Part shown: positions 17,448 to 52,588 of the stretch, piece by piece
How the letters are laid out: every line of letters starts with the position of its first letter
How positions within the stretch are numbered: position 1 is the stretch's first letter
Source: Candidatus Magasanikiibacteriota bacterium
Lineage (GTDB): Bacteria; Patescibacteriota; Patescibacteriia; Magasanikbacterales; UBA922
NCBI GenBank assembly: GCA_003482855.1
Contig: DMXO01000005.1
Location: 10,736-74,735 of the forward strand
Direction of reading: 5' to 3'
DNA: 64,000 nt
The notes under the pieces: model-generated
Told to the model about the DNA's origin: nothing
What the model saw: only the letters and a program-made list of their open reading frames with translations
Databases searched by the model: none
Position numbers and translations under genes: made by a program

Positions 17448-17476
17448 TTTGACTAATTCGGGATAATGATATTTTT

Positions 17477-18649: not shown

Positions 18650-18653
18650 ATAT

Positions 18654-20330: not shown

Positions 20331-20336
20331 TAATCT

Positions 20337-21023
20337 ATGAAAAGCAAAAAAGCACAACAAAAAAATTCTAAACAACCGGCAACACAACTCCATCTTCCTA
20401 TTGCTGAAATAAAGGACGGTGTGGTGATTCTCAAAGATGGCACCTTGCGCGCGGTAATGTTGGCATCGAGTATCAATTTTGCACTCAAATCTGAAGATGA
20501 ACAAAATGCTATTATTTCATCATATGTTGGTTTTCTCAATTCAATTGATTTCCCTATACAAATCGTTGTCCAGTCACGTCGATTGCAGATCAAGCCGTAT
20601 GTAGAACATCTCATCGATATCGAACAAAAGCAAACCAATGAACTTTTACGTGTACAAATAGCAGACTATCGCGCATTTATCGAAGAGCTTGTTGACATCG
20701 GCAAAATTATGACCAAGAGATACTATGTTGTGGTACCCTATGATCCTATTTCAAATAAACAGAAAAGTTTTTGGTCAAGATTCAAAGAGGTCATTAAGCC
20801 GGCATTTACACTGCGACTCAAAGAAGAACGTTTCCAACAACGTAAAGGTGATCTTGATTTGCGTGTGCGTCATGTGAGTAGCGGTTTGTCGGGGATCGGC
20901 CTCGAAGTCGCTCAACTGGATACTCAAGCGCTTATTGAGTTGTATTATGGCACCTACAATCCCGATATATCATTTGCTGAACAACTTGGCGATATACAAA
21001 AGCAACAAATAGAATATACCTAG
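20337..21023 (+). CDS. VirB4/ConE-like N-terminal domain (228 aa); apparently the first piece of a split VirB4
   Basis: IAEIKDGVVILKDGTLRAVMLASSINFALKSEDEQNAIISSYVGFLNSIDFPIQIVVQ resembles the start of Gram-positive VirB4 (ConE/TcpF/PrgJ). Ends LIELYYGTYNP. Confidence 0.5.
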   Translation: MKSKKAQQKNSKQPATQLHLPIAEIKDGVVILKDGTLRAVMLASSINFALKSEDEQNAIISSYVGFLNSIDFPIQIVVQSRRLQIKPYVEHLIDIEQKQTNELLRVQIADYRAFIEELVDIGKIMTKRYYVVVPYDPISNKQKSFWSRFKEVIKPAFTLRLKEERFQQRKGDLDLRVRHVSSGLSGIGLEVAQLDTQALIELYYGTYNPDISFAEQLGDIQKQQIEYT

Positions 21024-21110
21024 AGTATAGATTGTATATATATCTTGGGAGAGAAGTGCAGAGGTTATGTTGTTATCTTGAGATTTAAAGAAGTTTTAAA
21101 AATTTTTAAT

Positions 21111-21242
21111 TTGTCTAATTCATCTAATTTTCTAATAAAATTTCTAATAAAAAAATTCAAAATTAAATTTTGCACGATATTAGATAATTTGAGATTTTAT
21201 TAGAAATTAGACAATTAGGTGAATTAGAAATTTGTAGACAGT
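21111..21242. repeat. MITE-like imperfect palindrome (family B) inside the 272-bp gap between the VirB4 pieces
   Basis: Left arm TTGTCTAATTCATCTAATTTTCTAATAAAATTTCTAATAAAA and right arm TTTTATTAGAAATTAGACAATTAGGTGAATTAGAAATTTG are reverse complements. A related copy lies at 53149-53250. Confidence 0.55.
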
Positions 21243-21295
21243 TATACATATTTGTACCGTCAATTTAAAATATAAACATTTGGTACATGTAAATT

Positions 21296-23185
21296 TTGTT
21301 AAGTGTATTTATGCCATTTAAACCCGTTAGTTTTGGAAAATCAAAAGCAATGACACCAGTTCGTACTCCCAAAGATGCGGAGCAAGAGCGGGTTCAAAGC
21401 GAGATGGTCACTCTCGAAGAGGAACGCCTCTATCGTGAGGGTACTGTTGCGATACGTGACCTCATTGCCCCATCAGCACTCAATATCGAGGCGAGCTTTT
21501 TGCAGCTTGGCACGACATTTTTGCGTACTATTTTTGTCGTGAGTTACCCACGTTACATTTCAGTTGGCTGGAGTGCACCTATACTCAATCTCAATCTGAC
21601 TATGGATGTGAGTATGTTTTTTTACCCTGTGAATTCTGCCATTATCCTGAAACAATTAAAAAAGAAAGTGGGCGCTTTGCAAGCTCAGCTCTCTGCGGAT
21701 GCTGAAAAAGGTGCCCCTCGTGATCCATTACGTGAGACAGCGTTACGTGACATTGAACAACTTCGAGATGATCTTACACAGGGCATTGAACATTTTTTTC
21801 AATTTGCTTTTTATATAACCCTATATTCAGATTCCAAAGAAGATTTGGAAAAAGTCACCGAAGATATACATAATATTTTTGGTTCCAAGCTTATCCACAG
21901 TAAACATGTACTGTACCAAGCTGAGCAAGGATTCAATTCTACGGCCCCTTTGGGCATTGATGAACTCGTGATTTCATTCAACATGAATTCATCTCCTATA
22001 GCTGCGTCGTTCCCATTTATTTCTTCTGAACTTACAAGTGATGATGGTATTTTGTATGGTATCAACAAACACAACAACAGTCTCATATTATTTGACCGTT
22101 TTTCATTGCAAAATGCCAACATGGTTGTATTTGCCACGTCTGGTGCTGGTAAATCATATGCAGTCAAGCTCGAGATTTTGCGCAGTCTTATGATGGGCGT
22201 GGATATCATTGTTATTGACCCTGAAATGGAGTATGTACATCTGTGTGAAGCAGTAGGAGGTACTTATATCAATATTTCACTTGCCTCAGAGAGCAAGGTC
22301 AATCCGTTTGATTTGCCACGTCCTGTCGGCCAACAAATATCTACCGAAGATGTTATACGTAGTGCGGTCATTACGCTCAAAGGATTGCTTCGTATCATGT
22401 TTGGTGCCATGACTTCGCAGGAAGATTCTATTTTGGATCGTGCATTACTTGAGACATATGCAAAAAAAGATATTACTGCGGCAAGCGACCTTGCCACAGT
22501 TGAGCCGCCGATTATGCAAGATCTGCTTGATGTACTCGAGGGCATGGAAGGCGCTGAAAATTTGGTTGTCAAATTGCAAAAATATACTGAAGGTACTTTT
22601 TCTGGGTTGTTCAATTCTCCGACCAATGTAAATACGAGTAATCAGCTTGTCATCTTTAGTGTTCGCGATTTGGAAGATGAATTGCGTCCTATGGCTATTT
22701 ATACATTGGTCAACTATATTTGGAATATCGTTCGTAGCGAACGAAAGAAGCGTCTCCTCATGATAGACGAGGCATGGTGGCTCATGATGCACGAAGATAG
22801 TGCCAAATTTATGTATGCGCTCGTGAAACGTTGCCGTAAATATTATCTTGGTGTTACGACGATTACTCAGGACGTCAATGATTTCTTGCGCTCTCCTTAT
22901 GGTCAAGCAATTGTGAACAACTCCGCGCTCCAACTATTGCTTCGCCAGTCACCATCCGCTGTAGATGTCATTCAAAAGACATTTATGTTGACTGAGGGTG
23001 AAAAGTATTTGTTGTTGGATAGCCCTGTGGGTCAGGGAATTTTCTTTGCAGGCAATAAGCACGCTGCTATTCAAGTCATTGCATCATATACCGAAGATCA
23101 ACTTGTTACTTCCAATCCCCAACAATTGCTCGAGATAGAGCGTGCAAAAAAAGAATTTGAAGAACAGATGATGCAAAATAAATAA
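21296..23185 (+). CDS. VirB4-like type IV secretion ATPase (C-terminal 629 aa; second piece)
   Basis: VirB4 mid-domain pattern IAPSALNIEASFLQLGTTFLRTIFVVSYPRYISVGW. Walker A FATSGAGKSYAVK; Walker B LLMIDEAWWLM. TTG start at 21296; ATG at 21311. Confidence 0.8.
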   Translation: MLSVFMPFKPVSFGKSKAMTPVRTPKDAEQERVQSEMVTLEEERLYREGTVAIRDLIAPSALNIEASFLQLGTTFLRTIFVVSYPRYISVGWSAPILNLNLTMDVSMFFYPVNSAIILKQLKKKVGALQAQLSADAEKGAPRDPLRETALRDIEQLRDDLTQGIEHFFQFAFYITLYSDSKEDLEKVTEDIHNIFGSKLIHSKHVLYQAEQGFNSTAPLGIDELVISFNMNSSPIAASFPFISSELTSDDGILYGINKHNNSLILFDRFSLQNANMVVFATSGAGKSYAVKLEILRSLMMGVDIIVIDPEMEYVHLCEAVGGTYINISLASESKVNPFDLPRPVGQQISTEDVIRSAVITLKGLLRIMFGAMTSQEDSILDRALLETYAKKDITAASDLATVEPPIMQDLLDVLEGMEGAENLVVKLQKYTEGTFSGLFNSPTNVNTSNQLVIFSVRDLEDELRPMAIYTLVNYIWNIVRSERKKRLLMIDEAWWLMMHEDSAKFMYALVKRCRKYYLGVTTITQDVNDFLRSPYGQAIVNNSALQLLLRQSPSAVDVIQKTFMLTEGEKYLLLDSPVGQGIFFAGNKHAAIQVIASYTEDQLVTSNPQQLLEIERAKKEFEEQMMQNK

Positions 23186-35721: not shown

Positions 35722-36372
35722 TTGTCTATGAAAGAGAAGGTTCCAAATCAAGAAAACGAAGATGTACAAGACAACAGTAATGACGAAGTACATGAGAAAG
35801 GTTTTTTGAGTAAAGCTGCTTTATTTTTTTTGGAAATTATCAAAATTGTAATTTTGGCAGGTATTACTATAGGTCTGGTGCGTTATTTTTTGTTCAAACC
35901 TTTTTACGTCAAAGGTCAGTCCATGGAGCCAGCATTTTATGAAAAAGATTATTTGATTATTGATGAAATTACGTATCGTTTTCGTGAGCCAGAACGTGGA
36001 GAAGTCATCGTCATCAATTCACCAGTGAACAGTGATCATTATTTGAAACGTATCATTGGTTTACCTGGAGAGCGAATAAAGATAGAGGACAATAAAGTGG
36101 TTGTGTATAATGATGAAAATCCTCGTGGTATGGTTTTACAAGAAATATATTTGGAAGAGGAAACACCCGGTTCTATTAGTATGACCCTTGGTGACAAACA
36201 ATACTTTGTATTGGGTGATAATCGTGATGCGAGCTATGATTCTCGTAGATTTGGTGCCATTGAACGAGGAGAAGTTATTGGTAGAGTGTGGTTTCGCGGT
36301 TGGCCATTTAGTCGTATCTCAACGTTTGACGTTCCTCAATATAATTTAACATCAGATAATAATGACATCTAA
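35722..36372 (+). CDS. lepB: Signal peptidase I
   Basis: Catalytic S and K boxes (GQSMEPAF; YLKRIIGLPGE; VLGDNRDASYDSR). Confidence 0.9.
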   Translation: MSMKEKVPNQENEDVQDNSNDEVHEKGFLSKAALFFLEIIKIVILAGITIGLVRYFLFKPFYVKGQSMEPAFYEKDYLIIDEITYRFREPERGEVIVINSPVNSDHYLKRIIGLPGERIKIEDNKVVVYNDENPRGMVLQEIYLEEETPGSISMTLGDKQYFVLGDNRDASYDSRRFGAIERGEVIGRVWFRGWPFSRISTFDVPQYNLTSDNNDI

Positions 36373-37885: not shown

Positions 37886-38131
37886 GTGTCAGAAATAAAA
37901 AGAAAAAAGAATGAGTCTTTTGAAGGATTCATGCGTCGTGTGAAGCAAACATGGTTGCGTTCTGGTAAAATACTCCAGGCACGCAAGATTCAATATTTTG
38001 TTCCAGCCAAGAGTAAAAATACACAACGAAAACAGGCTGTTGCACACGCAAAACTCGTTTCAAGGACAGACTACTTGCGCAAGACGGGCAAATTGCCACC
38101 TGAAGAAAACAAGAAAAACAAGAAAAAATAG
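37886..38131 (+). CDS. rpsU: 30S ribosomal protein S21
   Basis: 81 aa, basic, S21-like (FEGFMRRVKQTWLRSGKILQARKIQYF). GTG 37886 lies 6 nt after RBS GGAGGTGA; the ORF track starts at the upstream GTG 37877. Confidence 0.7.
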   Translation: MSEIKRKKNESFEGFMRRVKQTWLRSGKILQARKIQYFVPAKSKNTQRKQAVAHAKLVSRTDYLRKTGKLPPEENKKNKKK

Positions 38132-38679: not shown

Positions 38680-40905
38680 ATGCTCCCTTGGATTCTCAAA
38701 ATTAAGCTGAATAAAAAAACTGCTATAGCTTTCTTTGCTCTCGTGGTAGTTTTTTGTTTTTTAATTCCTCATGTAAGTGTATCAAATGTTTTGGCACAAG
38801 ATACTGATACATTTGGTGTAGCGCCTATTGATCAGGATATTCTTTTGACAAATACTGATATTAGGGTTGTTGTTGTCAAAATAATCAATACTATCTTGGG
38901 TTTATTAGGCCTTATTGCTTTGTCCCTCATATTATATGCAGGATTTGTCATCATGACATCTGGTGGACAAGAGGACAAGATAGCCCAGGCACGAAAGACT
39001 TTGATAAACGCAGTTATTGGTCTTGTTATTATATTGTCAGCATGGGCAATCGTTCGTTTTGTATTCAATGCATTGACCGGAGGATTCAATGAGCCTGGTG
39101 GAGAAAGGCCTCCAGTTATGGCGACCTTTAGCGGTTCAGGAGCGCTTGGTCGCGTGGTGAAAGACCATTATCCATTTCGAGATGCGACTGATGTCGCGCG
39201 CAATACGAGCATTGTGGTGACATTTGGTCTTGCCATTGATCCTGCAAGCATTGCAATAAATACCAATGGGACATGTTGGGGTGGAGACAACAATCCAACA
39301 GATGTATGTGGAGAAGGAAGTGTTCCTTATTTTGGTGATTGTTTTGATACTAACAATGATGGGGCTATTAGTTGGTCCAATGAGTGCGATCAACTCAATA
39401 CCTCTACAATCAAGATCGATTTGGCTGATCGCGTAGATACGTCGCTTGAACAAGATGATGACGCTGGACTTGCAGCAGCGGTTGTAGCCAGTTATGAAGG
39501 TGCGGGTGGGCCAAATGACAAGAATGTATTTACGGTGGTATTTAAACCTTTGGAATATTTGGGTAGCCAAACAGAAAAACAATTATATACTGTTGATTTG
39601 AGATATGAAATTTATAAAAAAGGACTTGGGGAAAGTATATTTGATGGACAATTTGTTCCCAAATATCACTGGAGTTTTGAAACAGGTACAGGACTTGACC
39701 TTAGCCCTCCCCATGTAGAGAGCGTATACCCAGATCAGGGTGGTGAAGTAGCCAAAAATACTATTGTACAAATCAATTTTGACGAGGCAGTAGATCCAAC
39801 GACAGTACAAGGATTGGTGAGTCAGCAGGGTGTTTTTGAAAATATATTACTCAATACACAGATAGGTGGTGTCGACACATCAGTGACTGGTACATGGAAA
39901 ATTACCAATGGATACAAAACCGTTGAATTCATATCAGATGAGCCGTGTGGTCTCAATAGCTGTGGTGAGATGATGTACTGTCTGCCAGTAGACTGTAGTG
40001 GTACTGGAGTAGATACATGTGTCAAAGGATATGCCGCACTTGTGCGTACAGCAGAGTGGACACAAAATGCCGAAGCTCCTTTTGAAGCGCAACCTTTTTC
40101 TGGTGTGTACGACCTTGCATTCAATGGTCTTGATAATGTAAATGATAACACTGGATTTGATGAAGTATTGAATAAACCAGCAGGCGCGGCATATACAGGC
40201 AAGGTTATTAACTCTGGCGAAACAAACCCAGATAACTACTGGTGGAATTTTAATGTAAAAAATGAAATAGATCGATCGACTCCATATGTGGAGTCAACCA
40301 AGCCTGGTGTAGATGCACAAGAAATAGATGGTGAGGCTTCTCTCGAAATTGGGTTTAGTAAAGTGATGTGGCTGAGCACCATGAATGATATATTACTCAC
40401 TGAATATCCGGTGCATGTATGCGCCAATGCCGCGGTAGGTGATGTGCGTCCAGAGGATGTGGTGTGTGAGATGAGTGAGAGATTGGATGATATATGGTTT
40501 AGCACAGGTGCAAAAATGCTCAACAACAAAACAACATCATATACCAAACATCGTACATTTGGGCCAAATGGCATTGATCTCTATTATTTTCCTTCGGTGC
40601 CAAGTACGGTCAAAAGTGCTAACCAAAATTGTGTATACCCTGGTCGTGGACCGTGGGATGGAGATTCTGCATTGCCTGGTCAGGCTTCAGAGTGTAGTGT
40701 TGCATTTGATTCCAATGGCACTATTTTGTCGACCACAGGCTGTGTTGGTGTCACGACGGTGAGTAGTACTGATACAGGGTGTGTTTATACTGGTGTCACG
40801 GTTACTGATCAAAATGATTCTGATATGTTGAAATCAGATGTAGGAGAATGTATTAATATACTTAGAAATGAAGATATAAGTCCAACAAGATATCAGGGTC
40901 TATAA
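38680..40905 (+). CDS. Surface protein (741 aa): signal peptide, VirB2/TrbC-pilin-like two-helix N-terminal module, then Ig-like (Big/SbsA-type) extracellular domains
   Basis: Residues ~40-135 (QDTDTFGVAPIDQ...IRVVVVKIINTILGLLGLIALSLILYAGFVIMTSGGQEDKIAQARKTLINAVIGLVIILSAWAIVRFV) match the T4SS pilin pattern and are ~65% identical to the N-terminus of the next ORF. Downstream has repeated P.VES..P..G..V.....I.I.F....D Ig-like units. Confidence 0.6.
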   Translation: MLPWILKIKLNKKTAIAFFALVVVFCFLIPHVSVSNVLAQDTDTFGVAPIDQDILLTNTDIRVVVVKIINTILGLLGLIALSLILYAGFVIMTSGGQEDKIAQARKTLINAVIGLVIILSAWAIVRFVFNALTGGFNEPGGERPPVMATFSGSGALGRVVKDHYPFRDATDVARNTSIVVTFGLAIDPASIAINTNGTCWGGDNNPTDVCGEGSVPYFGDCFDTNNDGAISWSNECDQLNTSTIKIDLADRVDTSLEQDDDAGLAAAVVASYEGAGGPNDKNVFTVVFKPLEYLGSQTEKQLYTVDLRYEIYKKGLGESIFDGQFVPKYHWSFETGTGLDLSPPHVESVYPDQGGEVAKNTIVQINFDEAVDPTTVQGLVSQQGVFENILLNTQIGGVDTSVTGTWKITNGYKTVEFISDEPCGLNSCGEMMYCLPVDCSGTGVDTCVKGYAALVRTAEWTQNAEAPFEAQPFSGVYDLAFNGLDNVNDNTGFDEVLNKPAGAAYTGKVINSGETNPDNYWWNFNVKNEIDRSTPYVESTKPGVDAQEIDGEASLEIGFSKVMWLSTMNDILLTEYPVHVCANAAVGDVRPEDVVCEMSERLDDIWFSTGAKMLNNKTTSYTKHRTFGPNGIDLYYFPSVPSTVKSANQNCVYPGRGPWDGDSALPGQASECSVAFDSNGTILSTTGCVGVTTVSSTDTGCVYTGVTVTDQNDSDMLKSDVGECINILRNEDISPTRYQGL

Positions 40906-40912
40906 TTGTATT

Positions 40913-43900
40913 ATGATGAAATCGTCCCGAAAAACATTATTACTAGGATTACTCCTTTCTTTCGTACTTGGAGGATTTTTGTTTTATGTTTCTCCTATTT
41001 TTGGACAGACAACTGATACGTTTGGTGTAGCACCGATAGATCAAAATTTAATTTTGGGCCAGAGTGACATACGCGTGACTGTGGTAAAAATTATTAATAT
41101 CGCCCTTGGTTTGCTTGGTATCGTGGCTCTGGGTATCGTGTTGTACGGCGGGTTTGTGTATATGACTGCAGGTGGTGCAGAGGATAAAGTTGCAACCGCG
41201 CGGAAGATACTCGTCAATGGCACGATAGGGCTTGTTATTATTTTGTCTGCGTTTGCCATTACGCGATTTGTACTCAACAAACTTATACAGGCGACCGGTG
41301 CCAACACAACCACTGAAAATTTGGATGGTAGTTGCAGTGAACCAGGTACTCCATATTATGAGAAATATCATGGTACTGTTGTATGCGATGCATTCTGTAA
41401 TTTGTATCAAAGCCAGTGTTGTTATGCAGAACATTTTGTTGTGAAGAGTATCACTCCAAGCACACCAAGTGCAGGAGATACGACAGACATGTACAATATT
41501 ATCATCCGTGCTTTATTCAGTAATGAGGTTGCAGGCCCTGCCAATCAAGTTTTACAAATATTCAAAAAGAATGGCACCCAGAAAGAAAACATCACTGATC
41601 AATTTTCATTTAATTATGATGGAAATGGTACTATAGTGGAAGCTATACTTAATGGACATGTGTGTGATGAAACTTTGTACCCCAGTGAACATTGTTTTGA
41701 TCCAGGAGAATACGAAGTCTTGGTAATGAATGTAAAAGATAAGCAAGGAAATGAACTTGAGGCTCAGACAGATTGTGGGACATTCCCCAAAGATGCTTCT
41801 TTCAAGACAGGAGAACGTACCCGAGACCAACTTATATTTATGACTCCTGCATCTGCAGGGGGGCCATATGATGTTGGTCAATACACACTTTTGACTGCCC
41901 TGAAAGAGGTTGATATTACTCATGGTATCGAACAAGTATGGAATCCGTTTGATACACAAAGTGGGTGTGTAGTGACCGGCAATTGGAGACGTATTACTGA
42001 AGTACCAGGTCACGAAGGGGATACCGGTTTTGTCGAAATTATAGATAGTGAGAGACAACTTAGACAATATCCTATTTATGTAGTGTCTGCCAATGAAAAT
42101 GCCAATGTCACATGTAGTGGCAGTGTTATAGGAGTTACTCAGGTTCGTTTTGAGACGTATACGCCGACTTCTTCTCTGGTTACTGGTCTTATATATGTAC
42201 AAGGTAAAACAGATGATGATGAGGTAGACCTGCAGAGGGTGTATCAAGAGACAGATATATCTGGATGGAAAAAAGTCGGTGGCGACGGGCATACCTATAC
42301 ATTGGGGAATTATGATGATTTTGTAGACAAGACACCGCCTGTGGTAGATCCATTGACTGCAAATGGAACTGCTGGTGATGGCGTGAGACTTGTTCAAGGA
42401 ATTGAATATCCTTTTGTGACAACTTTGCGTGACACCAATGGCAACGCATATGGTGACTTACATATTTATAAACAGGGATCAGCAAGTGCTATTCTTGATG
42501 AGTTTATTGATGGACCACGTGTATTGGATGGTTCTAGTGGTCCATTTGTTGTGAATTATGGTTTTAGGGTTCCCTATAGTTTTGAATTTAATACAAATTA
42601 TGTCGCAGAAATACGCGCGTATGATATAGATAGCAATGAGACATTGGAACAGATAGTATTCCGTGTCGTGCCAGAATATTGTGATGAGCCTGAGCATGCA
42701 GAAGATCCTGTGTGTATTGGTAGCAATGGCACATGTAAAGTTCAGGCAGATTGTGCTGCGTGGCTCAAATGTCTTGATACTGATGGATCTTTGTGCCAGA
42801 CAGGGGATACTCTTTGTGAATGTACGTCGTGGCCATATATAGAAAGTGTTACGCCACTCAATGGCGCTTCTGGTAATTGGGTCACTATTCAAGGAAAAGG
42901 TTTTGGCGATGAGGAAGGTTCATTGGCTTTCAATTACGTAGATGGTAATAGTGATAAAGATTACGAGGACGCGGGTGACACGCGCACTAGTATGAATTTG
43001 GCCCAATGTCGCGGTACTGATGTGTGGAAAGATACATGGATTATTGCCGAAGTCCCTGTGCAGGCAGGTACTGATTTACCCGCTCCAAACATATCTGTTA
43101 GACATACAACAACAGGATATACTGATTATACTACTGATGACTTTGGCCCCGTTGTTGGCACGTTTACTTACAATGACACCAAACGTCCGGGTCTATGTAG
43201 TGTACAAGTGTCAGAGGATACTGCATTTCCTCTTGTTGATGGCACAGTGACCGTATTTACCGCAAGTTCTACGTATGGTGTACCTTCTACTCCTATACAG
43301 GCTTTTGGTAAAGGGTTTGGATCATATGCCACAAATAATGTACTTGATTTCGGTGGTGTGGCTGCGTCAGTAGGTTCAGGATCTTGGAGTGAAGAGATCA
43401 TTACTTCAGTAGTACCGTTTGTTTCTCCTGGACGCATAGCAGTGAGTGTTGTCGCAAGCAGTGGAGAGAGAAGTAATCCTGTTCCTTTTGATGTATATTC
43501 TTTGCAAGATCTCAATCCTCCGGTGATCACTGCGATAGATCCAGCAACTACGACACCGGGGAGTTATATTACGATATACGGGTCAAATTTTGGCAATAAC
43601 CAGGGAATTGTAAAGATTGGCGGTTTGCCATCTGCTGCATTGCCTGAATATTGTGGTGACACCTGGTCAGATACCCAAATTGTCGTTAAAGTCCCAAGCA
43701 CTATTCTTGACGCAAGTGGAACTAGTGAAGTGTTGCCAGTAGTTGTTGAGCGTACTGACAATGGACTCAAGAGTAACGGCAGTGATAAAGCTGGTATTAT
43801 AGTTGGCCCACCGCGACCAAGTATTTGTAAATTGGATCCAGAGACTGGTCCTGCTCCGCTGTCTGGGAGTAATAGACTGACACTCAAAGGTGAAAATTTT

Positions 43901-46900
43901 TCAGCTTCACCAAATATATATTTTTGGGGTCCAGAATCCACGAGTACTGTGATGAGTACATGGCTATATGAGTCTTTTGCAAGTGGTAGGATAGTGAATG
44001 AGGTAGCAGACAAACATATTACTACGCCTATCCCCGTGAATACGCTCAAAGGATATTCCATGGTGACTGGTCCTATACATGTCATAAGTACTACCGGCGA
44101 ATTAAGCAATAGTGTGCGTTATAATGTAACTGACTGTCGTGAACCAAATGCAGGGACTATCTCAGGTTTTCAATGTTGTACTGAAGGAAAAGAAGCTGGT
44201 AGATGGAAGCACGATTCATTTATTTGCGAAGGCGGTACGCGTGATGCTGGTTATGTATGGCGTATGACCACAGGCAAAATTCCCGATCAATTTTTTGTTG
44301 TTGAATCCTGTTCAGAAAGTGCTCCATCTCCAACGCCGTGGGAATCATGGCCACAAGGTAAAGTAGCTTGTCTCAATGCACAACTTCAGGCGCGATTTAG
44401 TTTGCCTGTAGATCCAGATACTGTGGGCATAGGAACCATTAATACGGCAAATGTCGGCGTATTTACTTGCGGTCAAGGACAGACAGCAGACTGTATTAGC
44501 GCACGACAAAATGTTTCACCCAATTTTACATCAGACATATGGGGTTCTGACATGTTTGTTTTGAGGCCTATTGCTGGGGATTTGCAGCCAAATACCTGGT
44601 ATCGTATAGCCTTTTCTCAAAATGTTGCATCGCTCCGCGAAGAGATGAGACTTGGAGTGAGTGTTACTACTACAGAAAATCTTTTGGCTACGCGTCCTTG
44701 TGATACCGATGGCGACGGAACGCTTGATGCGGCATATTGTTTTGATTTTAGGACAGGGGATGTGGATGAGATTTGTACACTGGTCGGAGCAGGGATGTAC
44801 AAAGATGAATATACGACCAAGATGCTTGGTGTTGTACAGGATTCACGATACGGCAAAATCTATCAACTCAATAAAATTTTTGATCCATACGATCCAGACA
44901 TTCATCCATTGTATTATTTTGTGTATGGTATTGCCAACCAAGAGTGTACGGTCATCAATGTAGACAACAAACCTTGGGATTGGGGCGATGATGAAAACAC
45001 ACCAGCAACAGGACACAAGTTTCCCGGCGATTCGTATGTGCATTCACGTGGTGTGGCCAAAGCATGGGAGCATTATCCAGAAGGGTATGACATTTTTGCG
45101 TATATAGATGAAAATCAAGACCTTGAACCTGAAGGGCCCACTGGCCCTACTGTCGTCGACGTGCTTCAACTTGCGGGTGTAGAGTACGCAAATGGATATG
45201 ACGACGGAAGAGCTTTATTGCCGGGTGATACTATAGACGATGTCAATTTAAATTTTTCTGAATCATTTAATATACGTTTTGATTTTTCTATCACTGATAT
45301 AGATGCGATGAATGCTAATTATCATTATTTGTTAGGTTCTGATGCTTTTTTCGTCTATTTAAATAGACAGGCAGAGGCATTTATTTCGTTATTTTATCTT
45401 ACCAGTGGTGGCAACAGTTTGTATCTTGATGATCCTGATGCGGTAGATATACTGGTAGAAGGACAAAGATATGTGTATGAGATAGATTTTAATAAACAGG
45501 ACATGCTCTTGAGACTCTTGCGGGATGGAAATGTCGTGAACTCAGTGCAGGTTACTGCTCAAATGGAGATGGCCCAAATTCCATCATCGGGTACAGTATG
45601 GGCCCATGATAATACTATCATTGACCTCTTGAAAATGTATGATTTGGAGATTACCAAAGGAGAAGAAACATCAGGACAGGGTCCAGATATATCGCGCATA
45701 ACAGCCACCAGTACTCTGTATATCGACCTTGGAGATCCAAAAGTTTTGAGTAAATGGCCACTTTGTATAGAAGCATGTATCAATGCTGAGATTGGTGCGC
45801 AGTTTGACCAGATAATGGATATGACGACATATGCAAATCATATACAGCTTTTTGAATGTAATAATGGAGAAACATGCACATCTTTGACAGAAATTCCTGT
45901 CACTATAGCAGACAGTAGTAGTGAGACTATTGTACGCGCATATGCTGATCCGCCAGGAGATGCATATTATCTTGAAAAAAATACATGGTATCTGGTCAAG
46001 ATATTGGATGGCATCCATGCCATTGGAAGTGCAAAGTATGGTGAAGATGGAACTATAATTCAAGGTGTTCAAGGAAAATCTGTTGTACCGACTCAATGGA
46101 AATTTAGAACGAAAAATTCAGAAGAGCCTTGTGTGATAGATAATGTACAGCTCTATCCTGATCCATTTACGGCGACATACATTGGTCAGAAACAACAATA
46201 CACTGCTTTGCCAAAAGGAGCTCCTGACGCATGTAGTCCTTATGGCCAATTCTTGAATCCATGGGATTATGGTTGGGAATGGGATGTGGCACATGATCAT
46301 ATCGCCACAACAACCAACTTTAGCATGTCAACGGTGTTCAACAAGGCATGTACTATTAATTGTTTGCCCGCAGGGAGTGACATTACGAAAGGAAGCTATA
46401 CAACATATCCTATTTGTGGTAATGGTGTTATTGATGTTGGTGAAGATTGTGACATCGCGAGCACTACGCCACGTACCAACCAAGGTGGCGCTCCTAGTAT
46501 TGCAGAAAACCCAGGAATTAGTTGTTCATATATATGTCTTCGCCCTGGCAATGGTAACAAAGGAGAACCGGGCACTGAAGGAGTCTGTGGAAATGGAATA
46601 GCCGATTATTATCAAGGTGAAGAATGTGATTTCAATGATCCTCAGCTTATAATTATCGATAGTGATGGTAATGAAAGAGATTACCGACCTTATTGTAGCG
46701 ACACATGTCAGTGGACTGGGTCAACACCAGAAAAAACCGGAGAACTTGCCAAGCCCGTGTGTGGAAGTAGTGGGGTTACACCAGGAGAGGATTGCGATAT
46801 ATCTGATGACACAACCAAGATAGGTTGTTCAAGTGTGTGTTTACATAGTGGTACGCCACTTATGCAACATTGGTGCGATACCGCTCCTGCATCTGCACAA

Positions 46901-49900
46901 AGTGCTTGCAAATATGCCACGAGTGTCTGCGGTAATGGAGAATTGGAACTGGGAGAAGAGTGTGAAGTGGGCATAAATGACGCAACAGTAAGTGAATGTA
47001 GTGATTGGTGTTTGCTCAAAAATGTATGTGATTCATCTCTCAAACAGTGTGATTATGAAGATGATGAAGGCTGTGCTCCAGATTGCACATGGCTTGGTTC
47101 GTCTATTCTTTATTCGCAGTCCTCACTCTGTTGGGATGGTGTTGCTGGTATTGGCGAATATGCGGGAAGTAATGCCTTTGCACCCTATCTTAGCTGTGAA
47201 GTAAGCCCAACGCAGGCACATAATCCACTCGGGGGCAATCCTGTCCAGCTTGTGACTGCCAAAGGAGAAGTGCCTCCTGAAGGTACGACTGATACAGGGT
47301 TGATAGACGAAGATGGTGATGACATTGCAGAATTACAGAGGACACAGATATTTGCAGATCCAACCACATATCGCAATCCGGATGGGAGTGTGAGCTCTAC
47401 TGTTGGCGATATTGAAGGTGCAGGCCAATATTCACTCCAATGTGGATACACTGAATATACCGAACAACAAATAGAAGAAGAGGAATATACAACTTTGAAT
47501 GATTGTCCTCAAAATACACAAAATCGATTTGGTGTTGCATCTAACTCATGTTGTTATATCCGTCCAGAACGTGTAGACCAATATCCCGCAGTAAATCAGG
47601 GTATTAGTGATAGTAATTCAGTATGTCGTAATACATATCTAGAAGTGGAGTTTAATCATGTAATGGATACTACGTCATTTACCAATAATACATACGTGGT
47701 ACAAGGGTATGAAGAAACACTATATCCAGACTTTAGTTGTGCAGAACATGGTGGAGAGGACATCACGCTTGCGATGAATACTATGCTTGGTATATCTCCT
47801 GATATCGCTCCACAAGGCTTTTGGAGCAAGGTATGGCATGGTATCAAGACATTTTTTGTAAAATTGTTTAGTAGAGATGCCTATGCAGTAGAACCAAATG
47901 CCGGCCTTTCAGGGACTATCACGTGGTGCAAGAGTGATATCAAATTAGATAACGCTGTCTTTCCTGTTCTTGACGAAGATGGAGAGACCACTGCGAGCAA
48001 AGCTGCATTATATTTGAATAAAGCACTAGACGAAAATGTGTATGTTGCTGTCATGTTGGAAGGTGGTGCAACCAAGATCAGAGACACAGAAGGTGTGGGT
48101 ATTCGCAAGCCATTTTCTGGTTATGAGGGTACAGACTATTGGATTTTTAGGACAGGAAGCGAAATATGCAAGATAGACCATATAAATGTAGAACCGTCTG
48201 GGTATTTGTTCAGGACTCCTGAGTCGCAAAGAATATTTGAGGCACAGGTTATTAGTAATACGGGCGGCCAGCTTATTGTACCTATTCCGGATGTGTATTA
48301 TTGGGAATGGGCATGGCATCCACAAAATAACCCCATATTCAATATTCCATCTGACAATCATCCTTATACCAATGTGACGACAAAAGGCGTAGAAGGTCAC
48401 CTTAATGCTATGGGTCAAGCAGAAGTAACGGTAGATATATTTGAAGAAAATAATCAGCTTGGTCAAAAGTTTAATGATTTGTTTGATCTCACCGCATTTT
48501 TCTGTGTGAATCCATGGCCACATATGGATACCTCCATACAAGGTACTACACAAGCAACTATTGATCCGGGGTTTTTTGAAGAAGAGCAGTATCATTTCTC
48601 TATGCTGTATTGTGCGGATGATGGCAATCCTCTCACTATAAGTGATGATCTCCCTTTGTTTGATAATATTTTGGCAGTAACCAATTTGGCAGATCTTGGA
48701 GGAGGTGGTGATGCTACTACTGACACATTATTGCGTTATTTACTATTCTCGAGTACGACCGAAGATGTCATCGGTATTCAGATTTTTGATAATCCTCCAA
48801 AGTCTGATGGTTCGCGACAAACACTTGATGAATGGTATACCAAACGATTTGAAAATATCGGTGCTATGCAACGTACGAGCGTAGCTGATTTTGATGCTTT
48901 GACTGATGGAAGTAATTTTTATATCAATGTATATGATTTTTCTCAAACTGCCCCAACAGACATAGGCATTGTTCATAATTATGTATATCTGTTTAGTGTG
49001 GATGTGAATGCGAACATACAGACCAAGAAAGCCTTTGAACAGATCATTGGTTTGCTTGAAGTAAATACCAATTTTACTGACTGGGGTAAATGTCTGGATA
49101 ATAATGTGCCTCATCATACCTACACGCAGATACCGGTTCGTACGCACGATGATGATATTGTCGAAGTAGATTGTGTCACTGATTTTGATTGTCTCAATAG
49201 TGAAGGCATTCCTTTGTCAGAGACAGGCTTGGAGACAAACGGCGTGTGTTCAAATCAAAAAACAAAATTTTTGCGTGATATAAAACGTTTGCAAGATTTG
49301 CGCACTGCTCAATTCAAAATAGACGATTATTTCAATAATGCATTTGGCACGCCAGATTTCGTCGGAGGCCTTGAGAGTGGATCGTTCATCCAGGGGTATA
49401 CCAATTCAAAATGGCAAACTTCATGGGGAAGGCTTAGTTCTTATATGGGAGGACTTCCTATAGATCCTATCAATGTATGGGTAGGATGTAGTGACCACGA
49501 TAGCGAGACATGTTGGAATTCAGTCAGTTCTACATTCAAATGTCCCCAAGCAGCACAAGTATATGAATACAAATATAATGATGCTGCAGAATCTTATTAT
49601 CTATTTGCACCGTTTGAATTTTTTAAATCGAGTGATCCTTTTGTAAGTCAGTTTATTGATACAAGTAATATTGTATTTGGTAGGAGTTGTTTGCCAGGGG
49701 ATGTGGCTGCAGCATACCAAGGAACTTGTGGAGATGGGATAGTGAATCCAGCGCTTGAAGAATGCGATCCACCAGAGAAAGAAAAGATAGTCCATCAGAC
49801 ATACAATGGGTCAGGCCAAATTATTTCATGTTCGGCAAATCAATATGCTATTGCGACTTGTAGTGATATTTGTGAATGGAATTATGGTGCCTGTACTCTT

Positions 49901-52588
49901 GGAGAAGTAGGGACATGTGGTGACGGTATCGTACAATGGCAACAGGGTGAGACCTGTGATCTTGGAGAAAACAATGGACAATACGGCAAATGCGATCCGC
50001 CGGGTGTTTCGAATGATTCAAGTACTCCTGTAAATGAATCTCTAGGTTGTCGCTCAGAGGGCAGGCTTGGAGGTTATTGTGGGGACAACAGTCTCAATCA
50101 ATCTGCCAATGGCGATCCGCTTGAGTTTTGCGATGAAATCAATGGCGTTTGTACATACATTACTGATGAAGGACAACTCATCAAACCAAAAGTTCAAATT
50201 GTATTGGATAGGTCGGGTTCAATGAAGTATTGTACTGATGGTACGCACAGTGGCAGCGAGGCGTGGTGTAATGGAATAGTGGATAATCCAAATAGCAGAT
50301 GGATATTGGCAAAGACAGGTCTGCAAAATATATTTGACGATTTTTCAAATTTTGCTCGATTTACGTTGCATGTTTTTTCTGCTGATTATTTGAGCACCAA
50401 AAAATGTGTGACGCAGATTGGTAGTGAGAATAATTTTATTACCCAGTTGGATGATATCGATCCATTGGGTGGCACGCCAACAAAAAATGCTTTGGAAGAT
50501 ATATATGATAAGAGGAATATTCTCTTTGGTACTGATCCTACAGTGCCTCGTACGGTTATTTTAGTGACAGATGGAGACCCGTCTGATGTTACGGGAGTTT
50601 GCACGGGTAATACTGTGGCGAATACAAAACAAGTGATTGAAGATTTAAGTAGAGAAGGTATTTCTACTTTTGTTGTCGGTTTTGGGGATGTAGGTGCAAC
50701 ACTCAGTAATAATCTCAATATATTTGCTGAAGCAGGAGGTACTGATAATCCTGGCAGTGAAGATAGATTTTATGAAGCAGATAGCCCAGATAGCCTTCTA
50801 AATGTGTTTGAACAAATTTTGGCCTGCCAGTCATACAGCAAGGTCAGGAGAGGTTCTTGCACATTTGATTGCCAGAATTTTGGTGGACATTGTGGCGATG
50901 GAGTTACTCAATGGGATTATGAAGAGTGTGATGATGGTAATACCAATAATATTGATGCGTGTCTGAGTAATTGTACGCTTAAATCAGGCGCAGTATGTGG
51001 AAATAACACAAAAGAGGGCACTGAACAATGTGATGATGGTAATAACACAGATGGAGATGGATGTACTGCAACCTGCGCTATAGAGATTACTGAGACTACT
51101 GATCCGTTTTGTGGTGACGGAGAAGAGAATCTGCCAGGAGAAAGATGCGATAAAGGTACAGAAAATGGAGTTGTCTGTATCCCAGAGTATAATGGCTCAT
51201 GTACGTATTGTACCGAGAGTTGTATTATAGAGACAGTGGATTCAGAAAAACGTTGTGGCAATGGGAAAGTTGACTATAACGGTTCCCAAGCTTTGGAAGC
51301 ATGTGATTATGTACTTGATGGTCAAGGTGCCCAATCCACCATATACATGGCTACTTCTACTTCAGCTGACGGGCAACTCTTGTGGACATGTAGTAATGAA
51401 TTGATTCTACAGCATTCTTCCGTAAATGAGATCCGTGGTTCTTTGTCATGCGATGATACATGTCAAACACTCAATACTGATAGATGTGTTCAGTGTGGGC
51501 TCAAAGAACTAGCCAAGGGTGGTGTGAAACCAAAGATGGCAGTACTTAATGTGATGACAGGGCAACCGGGGGATTCAGATTGGGCAAATGTCGCGGGTAA
51601 TTCTATAGACGTTGAGTCTATATGGGAAGGTATGTATGCACGTTATTATAGATTGTCTCAAAGTGGAAATACGTCTGACCCTGGTTATATGGGGAGTGGC
51701 GCTTTGAAAGATGTTACACCATATACAGACCAACATATGGTTGCCTCTGGTGATAATGGCACTCTAAGTCAGGATGCATGGGGTATTGAAACAAATAAGC
51801 AGTGTTCTGATTTTTACAGTATTTATTATAATAAGAATACTATTAAACAAAAATTTTTTGGTGGCAGTGCCACTCTTACAGACTACTTAGCGAGCGGTAG
51901 TTATTTCCCATATCCAGTTGATGGCGAGGCAGGAGTAGTGGAGCGCGATTTCGTCGTATCTCCCGCAGTCAAATCCGGAGACATACGCGTGGTCGTGCGT
52001 TGGGATAGAAGCAAGGATCCCAGTGTTGATTTTGCCGGAGCATTTTGGCGAGATGGAAATGGCTTCTCTTCGTATTCAAGTGCGTTGAGCAATTCCAAAT
52101 TATGCAGAGCTATAACTCTTGCTACAGACGGATATTGGAAACCGGATCCTGTTGATCCTGCTTGTGTTTCAAATATAGATAAAGCGTGGACACATTTTTA
52201 TGTCAAAGGTAATGACATAGGAGTACAGTCATATACATTTAGTCTTGATGGCAATACGAATCATAAGGCTATAGGTTTTGTCGTTATGTCGCCCAATGGT
52301 CCTATAGGTCAGTATCTTGATTATGACATATGGGTAGATGTATATTTACCGTATGCCAACCAAGTGCCCGCCTATTCTATATATAAGCCAGCAACATTTC
52401 ATATTAGCCAAGCAGAGTCATCAGACAACACAATGTCTTTGTATTGGCATGTGTTCAATATCGTAAAAGCAGGGAATATATATGTTCCAGTTGATGCATA
52501 TTCTTCAGACAATAGCGGTGGTACTATAGAAACAGATCTATGTCAGGTTCGTGAAAATATGCCGAGTACTACTAAATGTCAATTTTAG
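40913..52588 (+). CDS. Giant surface protein (3891 aa): VirB2/TrbC-pilin-like N-terminal module plus IPT/TIG-like, Ig-like, more than 10 Myxococcus-type Cys-rich repeats (CGDG...EECDDGN...DGC) and a vWA domain
   Basis: The N-terminal ~130 aa are paralogous to ORF 38680. IPT-like GASGNWVTIQGKGFG / GSYITIYGSNFG. Cys-rich repeats around 46.4-47.1 kb and 49.7-51.3 kb. vWA domain with a MIDAS motif (VLDRSGSM...T...VTDGDP) at ~50.2-50.7 kb. Confidence 0.7.
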   Translation: MMKSSRKTLLLGLLLSFVLGGFLFYVSPIFGQTTDTFGVAPIDQNLILGQSDIRVTVVKIINIALGLLGIVALGIVLYGGFVYMTAGGAEDKVATARKILVNGTIGLVIILSAFAITRFVLNKLIQATGANTTTENLDGSCSEPGTPYYEKYHGTVVCDAFCNLYQSQCCYAEHFVVKSITPSTPSAGDTTDMYNIIIRALFSNEVAGPANQVLQIFKKNGTQKENITDQFSFNYDGNGTIVEAILNGHVCDETLYPSEHCFDPGEYEVLVMNVKDKQGNELEAQTDCGTFPKDASFKTGERTRDQLIFMTPASAGGPYDVGQYTLLTALKEVDITHGIEQVWNPFDTQSGCVVTGNWRRITEVPGHEGDTGFVEIIDSERQLRQYPIYVVSANENANVTCSGSVIGVTQVRFETYTPTSSLVTGLIYVQGKTDDDEVDLQRVYQETDISGWKKVGGDGHTYTLGNYDDFVDKTPPVVDPLTANGTAGDGVRLVQGIEYPFVTTLRDTNGNAYGDLHIYKQGSASAILDEFIDGPRVLDGSSGPFVVNYGFRVPYSFEFNTNYVAEIRAYDIDSNETLEQIVFRVVPEYCDEPEHAEDPVCIGSNGTCKVQADCAAWLKCLDTDGSLCQTGDTLCECTSWPYIESVTPLNGASGNWVTIQGKGFGDEEGSLAFNYVDGNSDKDYEDAGDTRTSMNLAQCRGTDVWKDTWIIAEVPVQAGTDLPAPNISVRHTTTGYTDYTTDDFGPVVGTFTYNDTKRPGLCSVQVSEDTAFPLVDGTVTVFTASSTYGVPSTPIQAFGKGFGSYATNNVLDFGGVAASVGSGSWSEEIITSVVPFVSPGRIAVSVVASSGERSNPVPFDVYSLQDLNPPVITAIDPATTTPGSYITIYGSNFGNNQGIVKIGGLPSAALPEYCGDTWSDTQIVVKVPSTILDASGTSEVLPVVVERTDNGLKSNGSDKAGIIVGPPRPSICKLDPETGPAPLSGSNRLTLKGENFSASPNIYFWGPESTSTVMSTWLYESFASGRIVNEVADKHITTPIPVNTLKGYSMVTGPIHVISTTGELSNSVRYNVTDCREPNAGTISGFQCCTEGKEAGRWKHDSFICEGGTRDAGYVWRMTTGKIPDQFFVVESCSESAPSPTPWESWPQGKVACLNAQLQARFSLPVDPDTVGIGTINTANVGVFTCGQGQTADCISARQNVSPNFTSDIWGSDMFVLRPIAGDLQPNTWYRIAFSQNVASLREEMRLGVSVTTTENLLATRPCDTDGDGTLDAAYCFDFRTGDVDEICTLVGAGMYKDEYTTKMLGVVQDSRYGKIYQLNKIFDPYDPDIHPLYYFVYGIANQECTVINVDNKPWDWGDDENTPATGHKFPGDSYVHSRGVAKAWEHYPEGYDIFAYIDENQDLEPEGPTGPTVVDVLQLAGVEYANGYDDGRALLPGDTIDDVNLNFSESFNIRFDFSITDIDAMNANYHYLLGSDAFFVYLNRQAEAFISLFYLTSGGNSLYLDDPDAVDILVEGQRYVYEIDFNKQDMLLRLLRDGNVVNSVQVTAQMEMAQIPSSGTVWAHDNTIIDLLKMYDLEITKGEETSGQGPDISRITATSTLYIDLGDPKVLSKWPLCIEACINAEIGAQFDQIMDMTTYANHIQLFECNNGETCTSLTEIPVTIADSSSETIVRAYADPPGDAYYLEKNTWYLVKILDGIHAIGSAKYGEDGTIIQGVQGKSVVPTQWKFRTKNSEEPCVIDNVQLYPDPFTATYIGQKQQYTALPKGAPDACSPYGQFLNPWDYGWEWDVAHDHIATTTNFSMSTVFNKACTINCLPAGSDITKGSYTTYPICGNGVIDVGEDCDIASTTPRTNQGGAPSIAENPGISCSYICLRPGNGNKGEPGTEGVCGNGIADYYQGEECDFNDPQLIIIDSDGNERDYRPYCSDTCQWTGSTPEKTGELAKPVCGSSGVTPGEDCDISDDTTKIGCSSVCLHSGTPLMQHWCDTAPASAQSACKYATSVCGNGELELGEECEVGINDATVSECSDWCLLKNVCDSSLKQCDYEDDEGCAPDCTWLGSSILYSQSSLCWDGVAGIGEYAGSNAFAPYLSCEVSPTQAHNPLGGNPVQLVTAKGEVPPEGTTDTGLIDEDGDDIAELQRTQIFADPTTYRNPDGSVSSTVGDIEGAGQYSLQCGYTEYTEQQIEEEEYTTLNDCPQNTQNRFGVASNSCCYIRPERVDQYPAVNQGISDSNSVCRNTYLEVEFNHVMDTTSFTNNTYVVQGYEETLYPDFSCAEHGGEDITLAMNTMLGISPDIAPQGFWSKVWHGIKTFFVKLFSRDAYAVEPNAGLSGTITWCKSDIKLDNAVFPVLDEDGETTASKAALYLNKALDENVYVAVMLEGGATKIRDTEGVGIRKPFSGYEGTDYWIFRTGSEICKIDHINVEPSGYLFRTPESQRIFEAQVISNTGGQLIVPIPDVYYWEWAWHPQNNPIFNIPSDNHPYTNVTTKGVEGHLNAMGQAEVTVDIFEENNQLGQKFNDLFDLTAFFCVNPWPHMDTSIQGTTQATIDPGFFEEEQYHFSMLYCADDGNPLTISDDLPLFDNILAVTNLADLGGGGDATTDTLLRYLLFSSTTEDVIGIQIFDNPPKSDGSRQTLDEWYTKRFENIGAMQRTSVADFDALTDGSNFYINVYDFSQTAPTDIGIVHNYVYLFSVDVNANIQTKKAFEQIIGLLEVNTNFTDWGKCLDNNVPHHTYTQIPVRTHDDDIVEVDCVTDFDCLNSEGIPLSETGLETNGVCSNQKTKFLRDIKRLQDLRTAQFKIDDYFNNAFGTPDFVGGLESGSFIQGYTNSKWQTSWGRLSSYMGGLPIDPINVWVGCSDHDSETCWNSVSSTFKCPQAAQVYEYKYNDAAESYYLFAPFEFFKSSDPFVSQFIDTSNIVFGRSCLPGDVAAAYQGTCGDGIVNPALEECDPPEKEKIVHQTYNGSGQIISCSANQYAIATCSDICEWNYGACTLGEVGTCGDGIVQWQQGETCDLGENNGQYGKCDPPGVSNDSSTPVNESLGCRSEGRLGGYCGDNSLNQSANGDPLEFCDEINGVCTYITDEGQLIKPKVQIVLDRSGSMKYCTDGTHSGSEAWCNGIVDNPNSRWILAKTGLQNIFDDFSNFARFTLHVFSADYLSTKKCVTQIGSENNFITQLDDIDPLGGTPTKNALEDIYDKRNILFGTDPTVPRTVILVTDGDPSDVTGVCTGNTVANTKQVIEDLSREGISTFVVGFGDVGATLSNNLNIFAEAGGTDNPGSEDRFYEADSPDSLLNVFEQILACQSYSKVRRGSCTFDCQNFGGHCGDGVTQWDYEECDDGNTNNIDACLSNCTLKSGAVCGNNTKEGTEQCDDGNNTDGDGCTATCAIEITETTDPFCGDGEENLPGERCDKGTENGVVCIPEYNGSCTYCTESCIIETVDSEKRCGNGKVDYNGSQALEACDYVLDGQGAQSTIYMATSTSADGQLLWTCSNELILQHSSVNEIRGSLSCDDTCQTLNTDRCVQCGLKELAKGGVKPKMAVLNVMTGQPGDSDWANVAGNSIDVESIWEGMYARYYRLSQSGNTSDPGYMGSGALKDVTPYTDQHMVASGDNGTLSQDAWGIETNKQCSDFYSIYYNKNTIKQKFFGGSATLTDYLASGSYFPYPVDGEAGVVERDFVVSPAVKSGDIRVVVRWDRSKDPSVDFAGAFWRDGNGFSSYSSALSNSKLCRAITLATDGYWKPDPVDPACVSNIDKAWTHFYVKGNDIGVQSYTFSLDGNTNHKAIGFVVMSPNGPIGQYLDYDIWVDVYLPYANQVPAYSIYKPATFHISQAESSDNTMSLYWHVFNIVKAGNIYVPVDAYSSDNSGGTIETDLCQVRENMPSTTKCQF

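Follow-up and report, generated by a model that had tools for sequence, protein, structure and literature searches.

A lineage-wide gene pair in Magasanikbacteria joins VirB2-type pilin modules to large adhesin-type ectodomains

Patescibacteria encode VirB2-like pilins (family PF18895), as described for the arrays of Southlakia epibionticum ML1 and Nanosynbacter TM7x, which are tied to a type IV secretion system (T4SS) of the monoderm type without relaxase (PMC10633639, PMC12102498, PMC12857230). These pilins are small single-domain proteins (about 105-170 aa) consisting of a signal peptide, a tail and a hairpin; their tandem genes often adjoin virB4 and a pilin array comprises 2-11 of them (PMC12102498). 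Southlakia cannot grow as an epibiont without the arrays and the T4SS, and in Saccharibacteria the pilin array, which is located inside the T4SS cluster, is essential (PMC10633639). How Patescibacteria recognize their hosts and attach to them, and why the T4SS and the VirB2-like pilins should be essential when there is no relaxase, are open questions (PMC10633639, PMC12102498, PMC12857230). A 2025 survey detected no adhesins and did not mention fusions (PMC12102498). Here we describe two adjacent genes, which we call M and G, in a 64-kb stretch of DNA (hereafter the window) from Candidatus Magasanikbacteria, ultra-small bacteria from groundwater. Their products belong to the same family and phylum as the array pilins, share with them the layout of signal peptide, tail and hairpin as well as the tandem arrangement of the genes, and stem from a lineage that also has a monoderm-type T4SS without relaxase. 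Unlike the array pilins, M and G are 741 and 3,891 aa long and are encoded 17-23 kb away from virB4. Furthermore, array pilins are highly variable (25% mean identity; PMC12102498), whereas the pairing of M with G is fixed across an order-level lineage.

Classical TrbC/VirB2 proteins (PF04956), such as Agrobacterium VirB2 and TrbC of RP4, share with M and G a leader ending in A-Q, two hydrophobic helices and a short polar loop, and both of their termini lie outside the membrane, as we infer for M and G. They end shortly after helix 2 and are often cyclised or trimmed, whereas M and G continue far beyond it and, with a C-terminal ectodomain, could not undergo head-to-tail cyclisation; M and G also differ in having a monoderm host and genes that are not adjacent to virB3/virB4. 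The modular principle is known from type IV pilins, which can carry grafted vWA modules with a metal ion-dependent adhesion site (MIDAS), Ig-like or lectin-type modules, as in Streptococcus sanguinis PilB (pilin and vWA) and PilC (pilin and lectin; PMC8179133). Adhesion is proven for type IV pilins that bear a vWA or lectin graft, and modular type IV pilins are widespread in Patescibacteria (Raynaud et al. 2021, PMC8179133). They nonetheless represent an unrelated class that depends on an unrelated machine: a prepilin peptidase removes their class III signal peptide, and they have one N-terminal helix, whereas M and G have a VirB2-type hairpin of two helices behind a leader of the signal peptidase I type. 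The modular type IV pilins cited reach 860 aa at most, compared to 3,891 for G. The Mbov_0395 family (NF045849) of Mycoplasma integrative and conjugative elements resembles M by its pilin-like hairpin and its monoderm conjugative system, but its members are small, borne by these elements and devoid of an ectodomain. Finally, the PrgB-type adhesins (pCF10) found on the surface of Gram-positive bacteria with conjugation systems share with M and G a presumed role in cell-cell contact for a monoderm T4SS, yet they are unrelated in sequence, attached to the cell wall and without pilin module, and none has been found in Patescibacteria (PMC12102498).

The two genes and their parts are as follows.

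38680..40905 (+): gene M, 741 aa, a modular VirB2-type pilin with signal peptide, pilin hairpin and Ig-like ectodomain
38680..38796 (+): M signal peptide, residues 1-39, with a signal peptidase I cut predicted after VLA and before Q40
38797..38874 (+): M mature N-terminal tail, residues 40-65, QDTDTFGVAPIDQ...DIR, predicted to be extracellular and disordered in AlphaFold2
38875..39078 (+): M pilin hairpin, residues 66-133, with helix 1, loop TSGGQEDK..ARK and helix 2
39079..39129 (+): M flexible linker, residues 134-150, 17 disordered residues
39130..40902 (+): M ectodomain, residues 151-741, a beta-rich string of Ig-like type with 16 Cys
40913..52588 (+): gene G, 3,891 aa, a modular VirB2-type pilin with a giant multi-domain ectodomain
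40913..41005 (+): G signal peptide, residues 1-31, with a cut predicted after IFG and before Q32 from hydropathy and alignment to M
41006..41287 (+): G mature tail (QTTDTFGVAPIDQ...) and pilin hairpin, residues 32-125
43520..43777 (+): G IPT/TIG domain, residues 870-955, the best of three stretches (PF01833, E = 7.8e-17)
44369..44644 (+): G Big_5 Ig-like domain, residues 1153-1244 (PF13205, E = 2.9e-8)
50198..50812 (+): G vWA domain, residues 3096-3300 (PF00092, E = 6.9e-9), with the DxSxS motif DRSGS at 3099
50993..51085 (+): G Cys-rich acidic repeats, residues 3361-3391, the best of several stretches (TIGR02232 myxo_disulf_rpt, E = 3.9e-11)

The stop codon of M and the start codon of G, which are on the same strand, are separated by 7 nt. 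In both proteins, the signal peptide is followed by a short mature tail and then by a hairpin of two helices. By hydropathy, all hydrophobic segments of M are N-terminal (residues 10-40, 60-96 and 101-134) and the strongly hydrophobic segments of G occupy residues 6-31, 52-88 and 93-125, with an additional weak one at 829-847; when the full proteins were analyzed in this way, a C-terminal membrane anchor was absent from both. AlphaFold2, run on the module of M with an alignment of 92 sequences, predicted a signal-peptide helix, disorder at residues 38-60 and two helices (61-93 and 98-134) connected by a turn (94-97), the hairpin having predicted local distance difference test (pLDDT) values of 82-94. 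It was reproduced in the model of full-length M (mean pLDDT 84.4). The Gly/Pro-rich linker, which is variable in length, had a pLDDT below 50 at residues 135-143. Beyond helix 2, the chain continues for 600 residues in M and for about 3,760 residues in G. In both proteins a non-pilin module is grafted through a short linker, as in modular type IV pilins.

In the family, residue A39 of M shows a conservation of at least 90%, with Q or D next to it. This Ala-Gln junction occupies the position of the VirB2 junction, at which the VirB2 alignment has an invariant A-x-A-Q. VirB2 is cleaved at that junction, and cleavage of the leaders of M and G is predicted. Promoter and terminator scans around M and G returned hits at chance level only.

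An earlier note on this stretch, made from the letters alone, had described two open reading frames with the start positions and lengths given above, each starting with a signal peptide and two hydrophobic helices separated by a short loop and continuing into an adhesin-type ectodomain. This description was confirmed: the frames are uninterrupted, the strings that it quoted and the shared stretch QxTDTFGVAPIDQ are present in M and G, hydropathy and AlphaFold2 agreed on the helices and the loop, and structure prediction, which it had proposed as a check, returned a confident helical hairpin. The Ig-like, IPT, vWA and Cys-rich domains that it had read in the translations were likewise found by Pfam and NCBIfam as Big_5, TIG, VWA and DUF4215/myxo_disulf.

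The ectodomain of M was recognized by Pfam as Big_5 (PF13205). In Foldseek searches, the M model matched the tandem BIg domains A and B of the L,D-transpeptidase LdtMt2 and, in addition, CopC/PcoC-type sandwiches and the S-layer protein SbsC. The 16 Cys of this ectodomain are in invariant or conserved alignment columns. The Cys-rich repeats of G matched DUF4215 as well as myxo_disulf. G contains 130 Cys in all, and its vWA domain has a TDG motif, which was read by eye in the translation. Domain scans disclosed no enzymatic domain in either ectodomain. As judged from their sequences, the domains recognized are typical adhesion and stalk modules. No similarity was detectable between the ectodomains of M and G (best BLASTP E = 0.59).

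In contrast, the N-terminal modules of M and G, aligned over 133 aa, share 54% identity (E = 2e-45), and the identity of the tail and hairpin of G with M reaches 67% over 97 aligned residues. The paralogy that the earlier note had proposed therefore holds for the modules of roughly 100 residues, with a similarity that is not limited to the signal peptide, and was rejected for the whole proteins, whose ectodomains are unrelated. Its assignment of the modules to T4SS pilins of the TrbC/VirB2 type held as well, though through a Pfam family other than PF04956. PF18895 (T4SS_pilin) matched M (40.8 bits, residues 66-128) and G (27.4 bits, residues 56-120) above its gathering threshold of 26.6. The gathering threshold of PF04956 (27.9), the TrbC/VirB2 family itself, was missed by M (17.1 bits; 20.7 bits as isolated module), and G gave no match; 13 of the 92 family members matched this profile at E < 0.01 over nearly its whole length, with a best E of 1.9e-7. 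NF045849 aligned with M at E = 7e-9 over positions 14-78 of its 80 positions, though neither M (35.2 bits) nor G (22.9 bits) attained its curated cutoff of 40 bits; one M orthologue (P0206) bears the NCBI name 'Mbov_0395 family pilin-like conjugal transfer protein'. The nearest relatives of the isolated module were Patescibacteria proteins that stand alone and measure about 117 aa; NCBI calls some of them 'pilin'. A hidden Markov model (HMM) that we built from 96 stand-alone Patescibacteria pilins matched only two reading frames in the window, M (E = 1e-33) and G (E = 4e-28). The near-invariant polar positions of the stand-alone pilins (D60, T93, G96, E98 and the basic pair 105-106) are retained in the fused modules.

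Because PF18895 is itself built on Patescibacteria proteins, we tested directly the homology to genuine conjugative pilins. The Agrobacterium VirB2 sequence used was confirmed by its 99.2% identity to annotated virB2 genes, and eight further annotated VirB2/TrbC sequences were added, yielding a profile of nine annotated MPF_T plasmid proteins. When the module alignment was compared with this profile, hhalign returned a probability of 91.8% (E = 7.6e-7, score 43). The two alignments kept their register across the mature N-terminus and both helices, most of the signal coming from the tail and helix 1, and the loop was 8 residues longer in the Patescibacteria family than in VirB2/TrbC. The nine-sequence alignment was needed to obtain this result, as a single VirB2 sequence gave a probability of only 21%. 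With the reversed VirB2 alignment the probability fell to 0.4%, and in 30 column shuffles it did not exceed 1.4% (score at most 17.3). These comparisons showed, at the level of sequence profiles, that the module is homologous to VirB2. Type IV pilins were considered separately and discarded, since Pfam scans of M and G found no type IV pilin (N-methylation) family and since the topology is wrong.

The fusion was not restricted to the window. M had 359 homologues at E < 1e-3, the best 120 of which are 665-807 aa long, 38-63% identical to M over about 99% of its length and almost all made up of PF18895 and Big_5 (PF13205). A relative was encoded in 171 species-representative genomes, a search for the fusion in related genomes being one of the checks proposed in the earlier note. 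This excludes an assembly or gene-calling artefact, the fusion being an uninterrupted reading frame in all 171 of these species genomes. To assess the surroundings, 80 M-G loci were retrieved with 10-kb flanks, 4 of which were cut by contig ends; in all of the 76 assessable loci a giant reading frame with an N-terminal pilin module directly follows M. Relatives of G were searched with its first 1,100 aa. Complete giants that were clearly of the G size measured 2,261-3,441 aa, and most giants extended beyond the 10-kb flank. The order lepB-hisS-yqeY-M-G is kept in 66-78 of the 80 loci. The fusion is a fixed feature of the lineage.

Two small proteins are encoded downstream of G (52608-53069 and 53345-54331), the first one starting 19 nt past it. 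Both have an N-terminal hydrophobic segment and carry bacterial thrombospondin type 3 (Ca-binding) repeats. Homologues of these proteins were observed downstream of G in two related loci, most of the 80 loci ending before G does.

Comparison of 42 M orthologues indicated that constraint is unevenly distributed along the protein. Mean pairwise identity was 69% in the loop and 56-58% in the helices, compared to 42% in the ectodomain, 42% in the mature N-terminal tail, 30% in the signal peptide and 22.5% in the linker. The hairpin with its loop is thus the best-conserved part of M.

We also compared M and G modules within and across genomes. Their identity averaged 59.5% when both came from the same genome and 47.9% when they came from different genomes, and it was higher within the genome in 76 of 77 genomes (Wilcoxon p = 3e-14). 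This excess was nil in near-identical genome pairs and rose to 18 points in the most divergent ones; it peaked in the mature tail (54% versus 35%) and was absent from the signal peptide. Recent gene conversion was rejected as the source of this likeness: among residues identical between M and G of the window, 22 identical codons were observed for 25.5 expected, and over 76 loci the number of identical codons was only 1.14-fold that expected. The lack of a larger excess indicates that the M and G modules are kept similar as proteins. There is a functional coupling between the two modules, and their co-evolution within genomes suggests that they most likely pack together, or on one shared partner, in a single assembly.

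The T4SS of the window is a monoderm-type locus (12.7-23.2 kb) situated about 17 kb upstream of M.

19899..23185 (+): T4SS core, with PrgI/VirB3-like (19899-20330), TrsD-like (20337-21023) and VirB4 ATPase (21296-23185) genes, identified by Pfam (PrgI, TraG P-loop, AAA_10) and NCBIfam (TrsD/VirB4 N-terminal domain)
12684..19895 (+): three membrane-protein genes heading the T4SS locus (1,587, 390 and 436 aa), without Pfam or NCBIfam match

The TrsD-like gene, whose product resembles the N-terminal domain of VirB4, is separate and just upstream of virB4, an arrangement reported for most Patescibacteria. In the 1,587-aa protein (12684-17447), the N-terminal 350 or so aa form a polytopic membrane region, and the rest, over 1,200 residues, is charged and coiled-coil-like. 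The three membrane proteins are possibly of the VirB6 type, the 1,587-aa one being perhaps an extended form. M and G make up a tandem of two PF18895 genes, a number within the survey's range of 2-11 for an array (PMC12102498), but 17.4 kb from virB4. In the three genomes where both genes could be placed, virB4 was upstream of M on the same strand, at 17.4, 19.9 and 22.8 kb. VirB4 is 74-90% identical among relatives, far above the 38-63% of M.

No further pilin-module reading frame was found by the custom HMM in the 64-kb window, nor in the 10-kb flanks of the 80 M-G loci. We also scanned 80 related metagenomic T4SS loci (1.04 Mb in total), whose VirB4 is 74-90% identical to that of the window, and none of them had such a frame within 10 kb of virB4. 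M and G are so far the only VirB2-type candidates of the lineage in the window, the M-G flanks and the virB4 loci scanned. The structural part of the earlier note's proposal held. For its idea that a T4SS-like machine could display the fusions, the support is circumstantial and draws on the absence of another pilin from these loci, the proximity on the same strand (17-23 kb), the constraint on the hairpin and the co-evolution of the modules.

These findings suggested a reading, to which we assign a probability of about one half, in which M and G are modular pilins of the VirB2 type: they would assemble together and display adhesins, probably by way of the T4SS. According to this model, Sec would export M and G, and signal peptidase I would cleave behind Ala39 in M and Gly31 in G. 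The module of about 95 residues would then sit in the membrane as a helical hairpin with both ends outside, the conserved T-S/A-G-G-x-E-D-K...R-K loop facing inside, and helix 2 would lead through the flexible linker to the extracellular module. This would be a rod of disulfide-bonded Ig-like domains in M and, in G, some 3,760 residues with IPT/TIG, Big_5, a vWA domain with the DxSxS of a MIDAS, and Cys-rich repeats. Within a single assembly, the M and G modules would contact each other or a common partner. The T4SS (PrgI/VirB3, TrsD, VirB4 and membrane proteins) would use M and G as its VirB2 subunits, as suggested by the fact that its locus has no pilin gene of its own. The product may be a short surface fibre or cap in which an Ig stalk and a giant adhesin are presented for attachment to host cells. 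A stronger version, which we hold only tentatively, is that the Magasanikbacteria T4SS is a machine for adhesin display rather than an injector of DNA or effectors, with M and G as its sole VirB2-type subunits, which would join by way of their co-evolving hairpins into a fibre or cap that bears an Ig-like stalk and an adhesin of 3,760 residues.

Several observations weigh against co-assembly and display by the T4SS. The tight packing of a VirB2-type helix leaves little room for grafts of 600-3,760 residues on every subunit, and M and G could at most be minor or terminal subunits. The pair resides in a conserved housekeeping neighbourhood, outside the T4SS cluster (ftsA and ftsZ are located downstream of it, and 6 kb of sequence added beyond the window contained housekeeping genes). 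Stand-alone pilins are possible elsewhere in the genome, the scans having covered the window and the loci named above. The co-evolution of the modules could instead reflect a shared, fast-evolving partner or an old gene conversion. The name of PF18895 is itself an inference, because no VirB2-type pilus has yet been demonstrated in a Patescibacterium (PMC12857230 speaks of a 'potential' one only). We also counted the failure to reach the PF04956 threshold on this side, as well as two further results: a search of all PDB sequences with the module HMM found no VirB2 and only chance matches to G protein-coupled receptors (E > 0.4), and three fold searches found no VirB2 either, the helical hairpin matching thousands of unrelated folds.

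We considered the possibility that the hairpin, though derived from a pilin, is now just a two-helix membrane anchor, M and G being tethered adhesins or surface-layer proteins that have no contact with the T4SS and stay in the membrane throughout. This is the main rival reading, which we hold tentatively. The neighbourhood of the pair is of the housekeeping type, with no virB4 within 10 kb of M-G in any of the 80 loci, and since neither protein has another anchor the hairpin must at least tether them. The likeness of the M ectodomain to Ig-like stalks and to an S-layer protein would also fit, and very large ectodomains, sterically awkward in a pilus, would be of no concern. Yet simple anchors usually drift, whereas here the hairpin and its cytoplasmic loop are what is best conserved, including the near-invariant polar motifs of the stand-alone pilins. 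Moreover, a passive anchor does not need the co-evolution of the modules, which is strongest in the extracellular tail, and the 80 T4SS loci of the lineage would be left without pilin. The steric problem would also disappear if M and G were pro-proteins, the linker being cut after helix 2 so as to free a pilin of about 95 aa for the T4SS and an ectodomain that is secreted or separately attached. Such processing would parallel the C-terminal trimming of TrbC of RP4 and supply the small pilins missing from the T4SS loci, and the linker is indeed disordered, variable and rich in Gly and Pro. We consider it unlikely, as the linker has no conserved cleavage motif (22.5% identity, variable length), the operon shows no gene for a dedicated protease, and the freed ectodomains would have no means of staying on the cell.

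Lastly, the modules might have no relationship to pilins at all and be a generic signal peptide followed by a hydrophobic hairpin, in which case the HMM matches would reflect transmembrane composition. In favour of this, 38 of the 92 family members match the unrelated multi-pass family DUF898 at E < 0.01, the searches of PDB sequences and of folds yield generic hairpins only, and PF04956 stays below threshold. Against it, the hhalign probability and score collapsed in the reversed and shuffled controls, register is kept along the alignment from the mature N-terminus, 13 family members reach PF04956, and M matches NF045849. We therefore deem it very improbable.

If M and G are modular VirB2-type pilins, the pair may be how these episymbionts present adhesins. 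An operon found throughout the lineage that joins VirB2-type modules to adhesin-type domains provides, in any case, a testable link between the pilin family and attachment, with M, G, the co-varying residues of the tail and the MIDAS site of the vWA domain as defined targets. It also extends the 'modular pilin' principle from type IV pilins to the unrelated fold of conjugative pilins. Full-text literature searches turned up no account of large ectodomains joined to VirB2-type modules, and public databases name proteins of the M and G type 'hypothetical', 'Ig-like domain-containing' or 'pilin'. Should the T4SS indeed be an adhesin-display machine, it would, with M and G, stand as the first 'modular conjugative-type pilin' system. 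It would also belong to a broader set of PF18895 architectures, as yet undescribed, with grafts at either end and tandem polypilins.

The pilin profile matched 83,768 cluster representatives. The top of this search was dominated by proteins that we call 'polypilins', in which 2-17 tandem VirB2-like hairpins, separated by linkers of about 15-25 residues, follow a single signal peptide; examples (among P0247, P0252, P0249 and P0003) have 555 aa and 6 hairpins, 364 aa and 4 hairpins, or 1,775 aa and 17 hairpins. We found no description of polypilins in the literature. In the pilin arrays of two other Patescibacteria (L085 and L087), which adjoin a gene for a solute-binding protein (SBP_bac_1) and not virB4, the members range from 128 to 463 aa. 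The larger ones in L085 (L085:2891-3721 and L085:5133-6524) have the hairpin at their C-terminus, with an extra domain between the signal peptide and the hairpin, and another (L087:8219-9475) has a PG_binding_1 domain. Other C-terminal grafts on the hairpin comprised a beta-propeller, seven PKD domains with a cellulose-binding domain, and TIG/fn3 domains. Grafts at either end and polypilins fit a hairpin that has both ends on the extracytoplasmic side, tolerates extensions and packs side by side.

Upstream of the pair, the following gene is of interest for the processing of the precursors.

35722..36372 (+): LepB signal peptidase I, 3 kb upstream of M (Peptidase_S26, E = 1e-39)

A homologue of LepB is encoded upstream in 75 of the 80 loci. 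It is a candidate for the enzyme that would process both precursors, although its co-location with M and G is probably plain housekeeping synteny. Between hisS and yqeY, the window contains an 84-aa reading frame (37877-38131) with a sub-threshold match to ribosomal protein S21 (E = 0.022), which is called as a gene in the four assemblies examined. Many of the GTDB representative metagenome-assembled genomes that have a typical Magasanikbacteria locus (L010, L012, L019 and others) are titled 'uncultured Gammaproteobacteria bacterium', which looks like a systematic mislabel in the submissions.

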